Positions 32,341-56,140 of a DNA stretch of 64,000 nucleotides are shown here, in pieces. The translations under genes were made by a program, and so were the position numbers. The notes beneath the pieces were generated by a model. The model was given only the letters and a program-made list of their open reading frames with translations, searched no databases and was not told where the DNA came from. The DNA comes from Escherichia coli (lineage in GTDB: Bacteria > Pseudomonadota > Gammaproteobacteria > Enterobacterales > Enterobacteriaceae). How positions within the stretch are numbered: position 1 is the stretch's first letter; every line of letters starts with the position of its first letter. The DNA lies in NCBI RefSeq assembly GCF_050920415.1, contig NZ_CP169309.1. One strand, 5' to 3'.

Positions 32341-33429
32341 ATGCCTCACAATCCTATCCGCGTCGTCGTTGGCCCTGCTAACTACTTTTCTCATCCCGGC
32401 AGTCTCAATCACCTGCATGATTTTTTCACTGATGAACAACTTTCTCGCGCAGTGTGGATCTACGGTGAACGTGCACTTGCCGCGGCGCAAACCAAACTTC
32501 CATCGGCGTTTGAACTGCCAAGAGCAAAGCATATTTTGTTTCGCGGTCATTGCAGTGAAAGCAATGTGCAACAACTGGCGGCTGAGTCCGGTGACGATCG
32601 CAGCATGGTGATTGGCGTCGGTGGCGGCGCACTGCTCGACACCGCGAAAGCCCTCGCCCGCCGTCTCGGTCTGCCGTTTGTTGCCGTTCCAACGATTGCC
32701 GCTACCTGCGCTGCCTGGACACCACTCTCTGTCTGGTACAACGATGCCGGACAGGCGCTACATTATGAGATTTTTGACGACGCCAATTTTATGGTGCTGG
32801 TGGAACCGGAGATTATCCTCAATGCGCCGCAAGAATATCTGCTGGCGGGAATCGGTGACACGCTGGCGAAATGGTATGAAGCGGTGGTGCTGGCCCCACA
32901 ACCAGAAACGTTGCCACTAACCGTGCGGCTGGGAATCAATAATGCGCAGGTCATTCGCGACGTCTTGTTAAACAGTAGCGAACAGGCGCTTGCCGATCAG
33001 CAAAATCAGCAGTTAACGCAATCATTTTGCGATGTGGTCGATGCGATTATCGCCGGAGGCGGAATGGTCGGTGGTCTGGGCGATCGTTTTACGCGTGTGG
33101 CGGCGGCCCATGCCGTGCATAACGGTCTGACTGTACTGCCACAAACCGAGAAGTTTCTCCACGGCACCAAAGTCGCCTACGGAATTCTGGTGCAAAGCGC
33201 CTTGCTGGGTCAGGATGATGTGCTGGCGCAATTAACCGGGGCGTATCAGCGTTTTCATCTGCCGACTACGCTGGCGGAGCTGGAAGTGGATATCAATAAT
33301 CAGGTGGAGATTGACAAAATGATTGCCCACACCCTACGTCCGGTGGAATCCATTCATTATCTGCCAGTCACGCTGACACCAGATACTTTGCGTGCTGCGT
33401 TCGAAAAAGTGGAATCGTTTAAAGCCTGA
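32341..33429 (+). CDS. ybdH: Iron-containing alcohol dehydrogenase family protein YbdH (hydroxycarboxylate dehydrogenase HcxA)
   Basis: 362-aa ORF; GGGxxxD nucleotide-binding motif; synteny. Confidence 0.9.
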   Translation: MPHNPIRVVVGPANYFSHPGSLNHLHDFFTDEQLSRAVWIYGERALAAAQTKLPSAFELPRAKHILFRGHCSESNVQQLAAESGDDRSMVIGVGGGALLDTAKALARRLGLPFVAVPTIAATCAAWTPLSVWYNDAGQALHYEIFDDANFMVLVEPEIILNAPQEYLLAGIGDTLAKWYEAVVLAPQPETLPLTVRLGINNAQVIRDVLLNSSEQALADQQNQQLTQSFCDVVDAIIAGGGMVGGLGDRFTRVAAAHAVHNGLTVLPQTEKFLHGTKVAYGILVQSALLGQDDVLAQLTGAYQRFHLPTTLAELEVDINNQVEIDKMIAHTLRPVESIHYLPVTLTPDTLRAAFEKVESFKA

Positions 33430-33438
33430 CGTACAAAT

Positions 33439-33636
33439 TTAGCAGCAGCGCGCGCCGCCTTTTCCACCGTAGCGCGCGTCCTGCCGCTCACGGAAAAACT
33501 CCTCGTAGGTCATCGGCGTTTGATCGGGATGGTTAACCCGCATATGTTCGACATAGTTGTCGTAATCAGGCATACCAATCATCAGCTTCGCCGCCTGACC
33601 TAAATATTTTCCGGCTTTTGCCAGTGAATCAAACAT
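33439..33636 (-). CDS. ybdD: DUF466 small protein YbdD (CstA-associated)
   Basis: 65-aa [20 protein letters not shown].. downstream of cstA. Confidence 0.88.
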
Positions 33637-33699
33637 CAATACCTCCGGTAATCAGGTTGCTGAGAGAGTGCATTAATAGCTATCAACGCGCTCGGTCAG

Positions 33700-33772
33700 T
33701 CCCCTCGCCCCACCAGGGAGAGGGTTAGGGTGAGGGGGAACCCCAGGCACTACGCCAACATCCCCCTCACTC
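33700..33772. repeat. GC-rich palindromic intergenic element between cstA and ybdD
   Basis: cccctcgccccaccagggagagggttagggtgagggggaacccc...tccccctcac; gtgaggggg (33730-33738) pairs with ccccctcac (33762-33770). Confidence 0.45.
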
Positions 33773-33777
33773 TGACT

Positions 33778-35883
33778 TTAGTGCGCGCCTTTCGCCTGCG
33801 CCACGATCTCCTCGACATTTTCCGGCATTGGCTCATACGGCGTTTCTTTCGCCGTTGGCTTCGGCTCTTTCAATGCCGCCAGTGCCGTCTTAATCGAGAA
33901 CAGTGCCAGAACCACCACAACCACCATAAAGAAGATGGTTAATCCGGCATCCAGACGGTTGTTGAACACCAGTTGCGCCAGTTGTGACTCAGTATACTGC
34001 GACGGAATATTGCCGCTGTCGATCATTGCCTGGAACTTGTTAGCAATCGCCAGGAAACCGACTTTCGCATCCGGGCTAAACGCTTTCTGCCAGCCTGCGG
34101 TCAGGGTACAAATCAGCAGCCAGGCCGTTGGTACCAGCGCCACCCAGGCGTAACGTTGACGTTTCATCTTGAACAACACCACGGCACAGAGCATCAGCGC
34201 CATCCCTGCCAGCATCTGGTTGGCAATACCAAACAGCGGCCACAGAGTGTTAATACCGCCCAGCGGATCGACCACGCCCTGATGCAGAAAGTAACCCCAA
34301 GCCAGCACGCACAGCGCCGTTGCCAGCAGGTTAGCAGGCAGTGAATCGGTCCGTTTCAGGCCCGGAGAAACCACGCCCAGCAGATCCTGCAACATAAAGC
34401 GCGCAGCACGCGTACCCGCATCCACCGCCGTCAGAATAAACAGTGCTTCAAACAGAATGGCGAAGTGATACCAGAACGCCACATCCATCATGCCACCCAG
34501 CGCGCCGTGCAGAATGTAGGCCATCCCCACCGCCAGGGTCGGCGCACCGCCCGCACGGGAAATGATCGACTGTTCACCCACTTCGCTGGCAATCTGATTT
34601 AACGTATCTGGCGTAATGCTAAAGCCCCAGCTACTCACTACCTGCGCAGCAGATGCCACTACATCCGCCGTCCCCGCCGGAGCCAGCACCGCCATCGGAC
34701 TGTTCATCGCGAAGTACACGCCCGGATCGATGATACAGGCAGAAACCAGTGCCATAATCGCCACGAAGGATTCCATCAACATCCCACCGTAGCCGATAAA
34801 GCACGCCTGACCTTCGTTCGCCAGCATCTTCGGTGTGGTGCCGGAAGAGATCAGCGCATGGAAGCCAGACACCGCGCCACAGGCGATAGTAATAAACAGG
34901 AACGGGAACAGATTACCGGTCCATACCGGGCCAGTGCCATCTACAAACTTGGTCAGCGCAGGCATGGTCAGCGTCGGACGCATAATCAAAATGCCTACCG
35001 CCAGACCGACGATAGTCCCGATTTTCAGGAAGGTAGAGAGGTAGTCACGCGGAGCCAGCAGCAACCACACCGGCAGAACCGCCGCCACAAAACCGTAACC
35101 CACCAGCATCCAGGTCAGCTGCACGCCGGTAAAGTCAAAGTACGGTGCCCAAGTCGGGCTTTCTGCCACCCAGCCGCCAGAGATAATGGCGAAAATAAGG
35201 AATACCAGGCCAATCACCGACACTTCCCCAATGCGGCCTGGACGCAGATAGCGCAGGTAAATCCCCATGAACAGCGCCAGCGGAATGGTGAACGCAACGG
35301 TATACGTTCCCCACGGGCTATGAGTCAGGGCTTTCACCACGATCATCGCCAGTACTGCAAGGATAATGACCATGATCATAAAGCAGGCCACCAGCGCAAT
35401 CACCCCGGCGGTTGGCCCCATCTCTTCTTTAACCAGCTCGCCCAGCGAGCGACCGTCACGGCGCGTGGAAACAAACAGCACCATGAAATCCTGCACCGCA
35501 CCGGCGAGAACCACCCCGGCAAGTAGCCAGATCATCCCCGGTAGGTAGCCCATTTGCGCCGCCAGTACCGGCCCCACCAACGGGCCTGCTCCGGCAATGG
35601 CCGCAAAATGGTGACCGAACAGCACTTTCTTGTCCGTCGGCACATAGTCCAGCCCGTCGTTATGGCGCACCGCTGGCGTCATACGCGTCGGGTCAACCGC
35701 CAATACATTTTTGGCAATATAAAGACCATAAAAACGGTAAGCGATCAGATAGATACAGACCGACGCCACCACAATCCACAGCGCGTTGATCTGTTCCCCA
35801 CGATTTAAAGCAATGTATCCCAGAGCAAATGCTCCCATTACAGAGAGCACTGTCCAGACGAGGTATTTCCCTGATTTGTTCAT
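33778..35883 (-). CDS. cstA: Carbon starvation protein A (peptide/pyruvate transporter)
   Basis: 701-aa polytopic membrane ORF; CstA family. Confidence 0.95.
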   Translation of the reverse strand: MNKSGKYLVWTVLSVMGAFALGYIALNRGEQINALWIVVASVCIYLIAYRFYGLYIAKNVLAVDPTRMTPAVRHNDGLDYVPTDKKVLFGHHFAAIAGAGPLVGPVLAAQMGYLPGMIWLLAGVVLAGAVQDFMVLFVSTRRDGRSLGELVKEEMGPTAGVIALVACFMIMVIILAVLAMIVVKALTHSPWGTYTVAFTIPLALFMGIYLRYLRPGRIGEVSVIGLVFLIFAIISGGWVAESPTWAPYFDFTGVQLTWMLVGYGFVAAVLPVWLLLAPRDYLSTFLKIGTIVGLAVGILIMRPTLTMPALTKFVDGTGPVWTGNLFPFLFITIACGAVSGFHALISSGTTPKMLANEGQACFIGYGGMLMESFVAIMALVSACIIDPGVYFAMNSPMAVLAPAGTADVVASAAQVVSSWGFSITPDTLNQIASEVGEQSIISRAGGAPTLAVGMAYILHGALGGMMDVAFWYHFAILFEALFILTAVDAGTRAARFMLQDLLGVVSPGLKRTDSLPANLLATALCVLAWGYFLHQGVVDPLGGINTLWPLFGIANQMLAGMALMLCAVVLFKMKRQRYAWVALVPTAWLLICTLTAGWQKAFSPDAKVGFLAIANKFQAMIDSGNIPSQYTESQLAQLVFNNRLDAGLTIFFMVVVVVLALFSIKTALAALKEPKPTAKETPYEPMPENVEEIVAQAKGAH

Positions 35884-36194
35884 AGTTGTTATCCGTGTGC
35901 GTGTCCATAGAGATGTTACATTTTGTTTCTATATCAGCAGATTTTATTTAACAACCAAGAAACCAATGCGCACAACAAAAACACCTCATATTTACATCAC
36001 ATTGTTAACGAGATCACTTTAGTCGCGAAAAGACGTGTACAATTACGGACAATTGAGAGGGTTGACTCACCAGAGTAGTAACACTACTTATATGCGAAAA
36101 TGCATAGCCGAAATCTATAGTATTCCGCGTCAATGTTATGCAACGCAACTATACGATAGCATGGCTATTTCGTTATATGATAAGGAGTCCTCCC

Positions 36195-36617
36195 ATGAGC
36201 TATGACAAAGCGAAATACCATTTTGACTCGGTTATAGAAGAAGGTTTACCGCTCAGCCAGGCATACATCCATACTGGTTTTTATTTAGGTTGGTTGATTG
36301 ATAATAACTTGTTGGACGAGGAGTTTAAGGAAGATCTCGCTGAATCTCTTGCCCTCTTTACGCGCAGAGAAATAACAGCCCCTCAGCTTTTTGAAGAATT
36401 CGATGGTACTTTGACCGATGAAGAACTTTCGACCCAAGGAAACGCCTTTACTAAACATTATTTTGATTTTGATACAGGCGATTATCTCGAAGACTACTGC
36501 ACCCATCTTGTCAAAGATCTTCCCAGCGAATTCCATGTAAAAGACACATGGGAAAACTATAAAATCGCAGCGAGTTTCATATCCAGACGCTATCAGGAAT
36601 GGCTACAGAACCAATAG
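36195..36617 (+). CDS. Hypothetical 140-aa acidic cytoplasmic protein of unknown function (MSYDKAKYHFDSV..), in an AT-rich insertion
   Basis: Uninterrupted ORF; strong RBS (TAAGGAG, 7-nt spacer) before ATG 36195; an in-frame ATG at 36138 has no RBS; no TM or signal peptide; ~40% GC; I could not assign a family from sequence. Confidence 0.7.
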   Translation: MSYDKAKYHFDSVIEEGLPLSQAYIHTGFYLGWLIDNNLLDEEFKEDLAESLALFTRREITAPQLFEEFDGTLTDEELSTQGNAFTKHYFDFDTGDYLEDYCTHLVKDLPSEFHVKDTWENYKIAASFISRRYQEWLQNQ

Positions 36618-41610: not shown

Positions 41611-41744
41611 GGTCGCTAACCTAAAAGCAAACGAGCACTATGTCAACTCTTGAGGTAACGCAATCTGCAAGTCGGGGTTGCATCTGCTTGTGGTTACAAT
41701 GAAAATGAGAAGCATTAACTTCATTAATAACAGGAAGCTGATTT

Positions 41745-56037: not shown

Positions 56038-56140
56038 ATGCCGGATGCGGCGTGAACGCCTTATCCGGCCTACAAAAATCTTGCCAATTCAATATATTGC
56101 AGGATAGTGTAGGCCTGATAAGCGTAGCGCATCAGGCAGT
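56038..56140. repeat. BIME (two REP palindromes) between fepA and entD
   Basis: tgccggatgcggcgtgaacgccttatccggcctac and gtaggcctgataagcgtagcgcatcaggca in opposite orientation. Confidence 0.75.

Follow-up and report, generated by a model that had tools for sequence, protein, structure and literature searches.

The closest described system is the repeat family BoxC (Bergler 1992; Bachellier 1999), which was first described in the 1990s and which Holder et al. (2015, PMC4666352) equate with both TMECO and the PIT (potential intrastrand triplex) elements of Hoyne and Maher (2000, 2002). TMECO is defined there by the pattern CCCTCNCCC N3-6 GGGNGAGGG N3 GGGNGAGGG, with 3610 copies in 262 proteobacterial genomes, and five K-12 loci carry a type-A copy together with an inverted type-B copy. 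The same paper reports an intrastrand purine-motif triplex for the consensus, observed in vitro by CD and NMR, and describes "genomic instability" and a "palindrome effect". The G-quadruplex-hairpin-duplex switch HPG1 of Kaplan et al. (2016, PMC5100583), a G-quadruplex motif with the same 21-mer, interprets this repeat as another kind of structure; Table 1 of that paper gives "cstA >>> 632058 (-) >>> ybdD" as HPG1 no. 19. Two further systems show partial likenesses. REP/BIME elements, which stabilise mRNA 3' ends, are dispersed GC-rich palindromes that occur in 3' untranslated regions and between cistrons, and RNA 3' ends fall shortly beyond their hairpins; they are like BoxC in working only, their sequence is unrelated, and K-12 has a true REP 20 nt downstream of its cstA–ybdD BoxC. 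REPIN or MITE-like doublets resemble the paired inverted copies of K-12, which together with inverted-repeat outer flanks form a discrete unit of about 185 bp, present at fepB–entC in K-12 and absent in the window (the whole stretch of 64,000 nucleotides of Escherichia coli DNA analysed here). This unit is a candidate for mobility only, and no associated transposase was found. To our knowledge, BoxC has no transposase, and we know of no RAYT-type transposase linked to it.

Compared with these systems, the GC-rich palindrome of the cstA–ybdD spacer is, by its sequence, one copy of BoxC, also published as PIT, TMECO and HPG1. The TMECO pattern has a single exact match in the window, with 0.00 expected by chance, and the element is intergenic as in BoxC, lying between the cstA stop codon and the ybdD start at 33636 [Table 1]. 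Within the core, the 21-mer GGGAGAGGGTTAGGGTGAGGG (33716-33736, plus strand), identical to that of HPG1, agrees exactly with the G-quadruplex pattern (G3+ N1-7)x4; it is the sole copy in the window even when up to three mismatches are allowed (0.00 expected by chance). The window copy matches BoxC in the pattern, in the type A loop (TTA) and in the common mismatch variant CCCTCGCCC, as well as in its intergenic position, conserved flanks, multi-copy chromosomal spread, inverted A+B pairing and decay by internal deletion. Nothing essential differs; the partner copy in the window is cut to a 10-nt stub beside the cstA stop codon. In K-12, fabI (envM) is a member locus of the family, and we take fabI to be the gene beside which BoxC was first described. 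The equivalence to the original BoxC rests on this membership and on the statement in PMC4666352. An Rfam scan of the region gave no family above the gathering threshold, and we regard the best match, Antizyme_FSE (21.1 bits against a threshold of 40, E = 0.15), as a chance resemblance of the hairpin. The family, its structures and even the cstA–ybdD locus in K-12 are already published; the finding itself is therefore ordinary and matters little.

The original prediction had placed a 9-bp inverted repeat in a 138-bp spacer and had likened it to a dispersed intergenic repeat family more than to a simple terminator. The sequence that it quoted is found on the plus strand at 33701-33744 and 33762-33770, and the repeat is located exactly as described, with GTGAGGGGG at 33730-33738 and its reverse complement at 33762-33770, two matches compared with 0.21 expected in the 64-kb window. 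A chance palindrome is excluded; neither the quoted sequence nor the 9-bp inverted repeat is expected by chance. The length of the spacer is correct if counted to a TTG codon (33639) from the list of open reading frames, but becomes 141 bp if counted to the ATG (33636), which is the start annotated by RefSeq in a strain with an identical spacer. The classification as a dispersed family is borne out by the exact match to BoxC/PIT/TMECO, the median of 14 related places per genome and the flanks in common with K-12; the prediction had not recognised which named family this is, the triplex/G-quadruplex motif of the other strand or the origin of the 9-bp arm from a partner stub.

Table 1. Features of the cstA–ybdD spacer in the window, with related features of K-12 and of other genomes. 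Coordinates refer to the window unless another genome or locus is named.
Feature	Coordinates	Strand	Basis or remark
cstA	33778-35883	-	gene; ybdD adjoins downstream on the same strand
cstA stop codon TAA	33778-33780	-	hairpin 1 starts 7 nt 3' of the stop
ybdD Shine-Dalgarno GGAGG (33642-33646) and ATG (33634-33636)	33634-33646	-	sequence and RefSeq annotation of the identical strain
Composite element: BoxC unit, spacer, inverted-partner stub and outer closing helix	33682-33776	.	end-to-end alignment with K-12 paired BoxC loci; fold of 33691-33780 (-)
TMECO/PIT core, 35 nt, 'type A mm'	33702-33736	+	exact pattern match
Block 1, CCCTCGCCC	33702-33710	+	TMECO core
Loop CACCA	33711-33715	+	between blocks 1 and 2
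Block 2, GGGAGAGGG	33716-33724	+	TMECO core
Loop TTA	33725-33727	+	between blocks 2 and 3; type A loop
Block 3, GGGTGAGGG	33728-33736	+	TMECO core
G-quadruplex-type motif GGGAGAGGGTTAGGGTGAGGGGG (HPG1)	33716-33738	+	motif match; K-12 locus in the list of Kaplan et al.
Left flank, ATCAACGCGCTCGGTCAGTC	33682-33701	+	conserved in 15 K-12 type-A copies
Spacer, AACCCCAGGCACTACGCCAACA	33739-33760	+	homologous to the family right flank and paired-copy spacer; loop of hairpin 1
TCCCCCTCAC, stub of the inverted partner's third block	33761-33770	+	contains the repeat arm 33762-33770
CTGAC, outer helix arm (partner GTCAG, 33695-33699)	33772-33776	+	minimum-free-energy structures, window and K-12
Second imperfect palindrome, downstream of BoxC	33660-33699	.	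inverted repeat; alignments
Predicted cstA-transcript 3' end	33691	-	homology with K-12 632098 (+); surrounding sequence identical
K-12 BoxC-associated 3' ends	847200(-), 3781065(+), 3959467(-), 4231270(-), 164636(+), 624567(-), 632098(+)		PMC7815308, Supplementary file 1
Salmonella, 63-nt spacer	L148 638-700		simple hairpin GCCCTCTCC-N7-GGAGAGGGC, then AUUUGG
Another enterobacterium, spacer	L150 637-702		same kind of simple hairpin
E. coli UM146, hairpin GCCCUC..GAGGGC-AUUUGUAUU	L138 203-232		besides the BoxC remnant; scores terminator-like
Enterobacter asburiae, spacer	L143		REP and two-block BoxC hairpin
Further enterobacterial genome, CCCTCTCCC-TGT-GGGAGAGGG-CTG-GGGTGAGGG	L144/L145 712-790		full three-block core; orientation opposite to E. 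coli

We compared the element with 16 K-12 loci, which were fetched and aligned. The family unit consists of the core with a left flank GCGCTCGGTCAGTC and a right flank GAACAGGCCAGCACTGG, and the window copy has both in the K-12 alignment. The right flank (GAAC..GGCACT) is common to the window and K-12 copies, and homology extends beyond the core to a unit of about 56 bp. Four of the aligned K-12 loci are pairs, in which 26-29 nt separate a type-A copy from the inverted type-B copy that comes after it. The alignment of the window with these pairs covers the spacer, enters the partner by its opening bases (CCCTCAC) and breaks off at the cstA stop codon, and the stub TCCCCCTCAC aligns with CCCTCACCCC, the start of the inverted type-B partner, in all four. 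Therefore, the 9-bp inverted repeat is block 3 pairing with the stub of a lost partner. The perfectly paired 9-mer sits at the centre of an imperfect inverted repeat that is longer, with 16-nt arms that are 88% complementary and stand 21 nt apart. On the ybdD side, the second palindrome holds the point at which REP is inserted in K-12 (approximately 33672-33675) and the decayed ancestral hairpin of the cstA–ybdD spacer.

The condition set to refute the original prediction, a lack both of other genomic copies and of transcript processing or termination at the site, does not hold: other copies exist, and an RNA 3' end maps at the orthologous K-12 site. The sense RNA of the spacer folds at -61.5 kcal/mol (z = -2.83 compared with shuffled sequences), and a 90-nt RNA from the cstA stop codon to 33691 forms two hairpins closed by a GUCAG/CUGAC helix (-44.6 kcal/mol), with a 3' tail of 4 nt. 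The K-12 RNA has the same fold architecture, with a stability no greater than that of shuffled sequence (z = -0.84). In the K-12 Term-seq data of Adams et al. (2021; PMC7815308, Supplementary file 1), a dominant 3' end is located at the orthologous site, 632098 (+), in LB at OD 2.0 with average reads of 1686. Hairpin 2 finishes 10 nt, and the closing helix 4 nt, before this position, from which a further 84 nt lead to ybdD. The end appears in only one of the three growth conditions, with a modest read count, and it is retained in Supplementary file 3, the rule of which implies a transcription start at most 200 nt upstream; thus, the RNA ending at 632098 may not be cstA mRNA. The 3'-end data of PMC12207403 contain no E. 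coli entry at cstA–ybdD. A promoter scan of the region found no ybdD promoter, and the reading of the element as such a promoter was dropped for this reason.

At six other K-12 BoxC copies, too, the block 1-2 hairpin is followed within 1-11 nt by a dominant 3' end, in either orientation of the repeat (PMC7815308 table); the one at 3781065 (+) is the primary 3' end of lldD. Most of the K-12 copies that were checked have no dominant 3' end, among them pstA–pstB, yihS–yihR, fabI, alx–sstT and ygfF–gcvP, and a literature search on BoxC at pstA–pstB found nothing relevant. Judging by the public 3'-end maps, transcript ends and BoxC hairpins often fall together. This association contrasts with the older reporter assays of Hoyne and Maher, in which, according to the account given of them in PMC4666352, PIT elements acted neither as promoters nor as terminators and left RNA polymerase unaffected. 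The link between BoxC and RNA 3' ends seems not to have been tied to the family before, although it is only a mildly new thread.

We consider it quite probable that two things hold jointly, namely that the locus is a BoxC copy with a truncated stub of its inverted partner and that this structure-prone repeat marks or protects the 3' end of cstA mRNA. BoxC is a non-coding repeat that is maintained between genes, where slippage or deletion involving its own internal repeats wears it down. Transcription of cstA puts the C-rich strand of the element into RNA, for which the predicted fold is a pair of neighbouring GC-rich hairpins within a 5-bp outer helix, beginning 7 nt beyond the stop codon of cstA. 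Such a compact RNA domain could block 3'-to-5' exonucleases, or be the point to which transcripts terminated further downstream are trimmed back, and so mark or protect the 3' end. The hairpins would serve as a 3'-end barrier or marker for whichever transcript crosses them, and this marking or protection is most likely incidental. We infer that the hairpin causes the 3' end mapped in K-12; the same would hold in the strain of the window, where ybdD might then be made only from transcripts reading through the element. The negative PIT reporters, the lack of a dominant 3' end at most of the K-12 copies checked, the differences of the K-12 allele from the window, the single growth condition and modest read count of the mapped end, the transcription start implied upstream of it and the stability of the K-12 fold, no greater than for shuffled sequence, count against this model.

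On the opposite strand, the Rho table of PMC7815308 lists a termination region at 631994 (-) (Rho score 4.5, p = 8e-6). It corresponds to about 33783 (+) in the window, antisense to cstA and just beyond the element. The likely source is the hcxA transcript, as hcxA is convergent on that strand; this transcript would need an antisense run across all of ybdD and BoxC to reach 631994 (-). Elsewhere in K-12, the end 624680(-), in the fepB 5' leader directly upstream of the BoxC pair, has approximately 100,000-240,000 Term-seq reads in two growth conditions.

Of 5426 complete E. coli genomes, 5396 have matches to the spacer, and the median number of related places is 14 per genome, so the search for other genomic copies proposed with the original prediction does find them. 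The places are chromosomal in 66,561 cases and on plasmids in 29, and the genome identical to the window has ten. At cstA–ybdD, seven aligned strains have seven distinct alleles, which differ by REP insertion, a 12-bp duplication or internal deletion. The K-12 allele differs from the window by the 12-bp duplication, a mutated block 3 and the canonical REP inserted 20 nt downstream; its third block is GGGTGAGAGGG, and the K-12 copy fails the strict pattern, whereas the window core is intact. Approximately 22% of the genomes cover less than 80% of the 341-nt query, and all nine that were sampled are of the UM146 type, in which the core is lost. In UM146 and Nord1, blocks 1 and 2 are deleted and the remaining hairpin consists of the stub and block 3. 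At alx–sstT (L127, positions 249-374, compared with L151), an inverted pair is reduced to one hairpin in one strain. The collapse is a 76-bp deletion between two direct CCCTCTCCC repeats, a decay route for pairs, and it agrees, together with the deletions at cstA–ybdD, with the instability reported by Holder et al. At fepB–entC, the window has a clean empty site, GTTAATGC (41712-41719), and K-12 has a palindromic module of about 185 bp, an inverted BoxC pair with TAA at both ends; the TAA could be a target-site duplication or a deletion microhomology. At ygfF–gcvP, the empty-site comparison shows that the strain variation is a larger replacement. For annotation, the cstA–ybdD spacer is a strain-variable stack of repeats, BoxC with or without REP, and since these repeats vary by strain the spacer is unsuited to reading as a conserved regulatory region.

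The same variability bears on a reading in which the element acts at the DNA level, where a triplex or G-quadruplex of the G-rich strand competes with the hairpin and the RNA effects are incidental. The element would then stall replication or repair and be a rearrangement hotspot (Holder et al.), or it would be a transcription switch (Kaplan et al.). The sequence of the core agrees with the triplex pattern and with the (G3N3)4 quadruplex pattern alike, and both structures were formed in vitro on single strands (PMC4666352, PMC5100583). The hypervariable locus, with its seven alleles and its poorly covered genomes, is in line with this reading, as are the deletions between internal repeats at cstA–ybdD and alx–sstT and the absence of the fepB–entC pair from the window. 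However, this variability is equally consistent with the neutral decay of a selfish repeat. Furthermore, double-stranded TMECO gave duplex signals only, in vivo DMS footprinting did not support a stable triplex (PMC4666352), and the transcriptional effect is predicted in PMC5100583, with no function demonstrated there. We regard action at the DNA level as possible but rather doubtful; it is compatible with the preferred reading of a BoxC repeat whose RNA hairpins mark or protect the 3' end.

Regarding other genera, a simple hairpin, GCCCTC(TCC)-loop-(GGA)GAGGGC followed by a U-rich stretch, is present in the cstA–ybdD spacers of Salmonella, another enterobacterium and E. coli UM146, and its stem resembles the block 1-2 stem of BoxC. 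This hairpin has decayed to ATGCACTCTCTCAGCAAC in the window lineage and has decayed in the K-12 lineage too. A GC-rich hairpin in the spacer therefore seems to be ancestral, and BoxC seems to be a later, dispensable occupant. The opposite orientation of the full core in a further enterobacterial genome suggests an independent acquisition at the same spacer.

An exact-pattern scan of species-representative genomes gave at least 120 stretches in about a dozen or more very different genomes, and among the matches listed are Contendobacter, Afipia, Hyphomicrobiales, Deltaproteobacteria and Gracilibacteria. Also among the matches listed, 110 of 139 sites have the complementary CCCTCNCCC arm, which was not part of the search pattern; its N is T at 72 sites and G at 36. 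Across these matches, the GC content of the host loci spans 24% to 66%, and the longer repeat unit around the core differs from genome to genome. In a Candidatus Gracilibacteria MAG (L078-L094), the core is multi-copy and stands out as a GC island in loci of 24-31% GC; in distant bacteria (L003-L122), the core and its complementary arm are multi-copy within different MITE-like units. The 1299 open reading frames within 1.5 kb of motif copies at 120 loci were clustered, and no protein family recurs across genomes. The scan extends the picture given by Holder et al. and does not overturn it. A broader joint reading would make BoxC hairpins general, orientation-independent determinants of RNA 3' ends in E. 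coli, contrary to the older reporter result; at cstA–ybdD, the repeat would have taken on the role of the ancestral hairpin still seen in Salmonella and UM146, uncoupled cstA from ybdD and ended the convergent hcxA transcript, which is antisense to ybdD, and the recurrence of the core in distant bacteria would leave room for a conserved mobilising or binding factor. Such a combination is tentative, and we would sooner doubt it than expect it.

A dedicated cis-regulatory RNA of cstA–ybdD, such as an attenuator controlling the CstA:YbdD ratio and selected for this task, would agree with the GC-rich CCCTC.../...GAGGG hairpin in every enterobacterial cstA–ybdD spacer examined (Salmonella, another enterobacterium, UM146, Enterobacter asburiae and one further genome), with the terminator-like score of the UM146-type hairpin and with the 3' end mapped in the K-12 spacer, and both cstA and ybdD are needed for pyruvate uptake (PMC5847655, a paper in which nothing on their cotranscription was found). 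However, the core is dispensable, being deleted in the UM146-type allele while YbdD (WP_000460431.1) is the same protein in all six annotated E. coli strains fetched. The copies of the family at unrelated loci, in both orientations, and the reversed core in the same spacer of another enterobacterium also argue against selection for this role, and we consider a dedicated regulator unlikely. Lastly, an ordinary Rho-independent terminator of cstA is very improbable and was rejected despite the GC-rich hairpins directly after the stop codon, since no U-tract follows either hairpin, a scan of 33300-34000 on both strands gave 0 terminator-like sites, in keeping with the original preference for a repeat family over a simple terminator, and PIT elements were inactive as terminators in the reporters as recounted in PMC4666352.

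Two other features of the window lie apart from the element. The REP consensus GCCGGATGCGGCGTGAACGCCTTATCCGGCCTAC has no match at cstA–ybdD when up to three mismatches are allowed; its sole match in the window, at 56040-56073 (+), is a perfect one to the canonical consensus and is unrelated to the BoxC element. Between entH and cstA, a 159-codon open reading frame occupies 36138-36617 (+), and the identical strain annotates it as a hypothetical protein. The entH–cstA gap in K-12 is only about 180 bp, and the reading frame in the window is a strain-specific accessory insertion.
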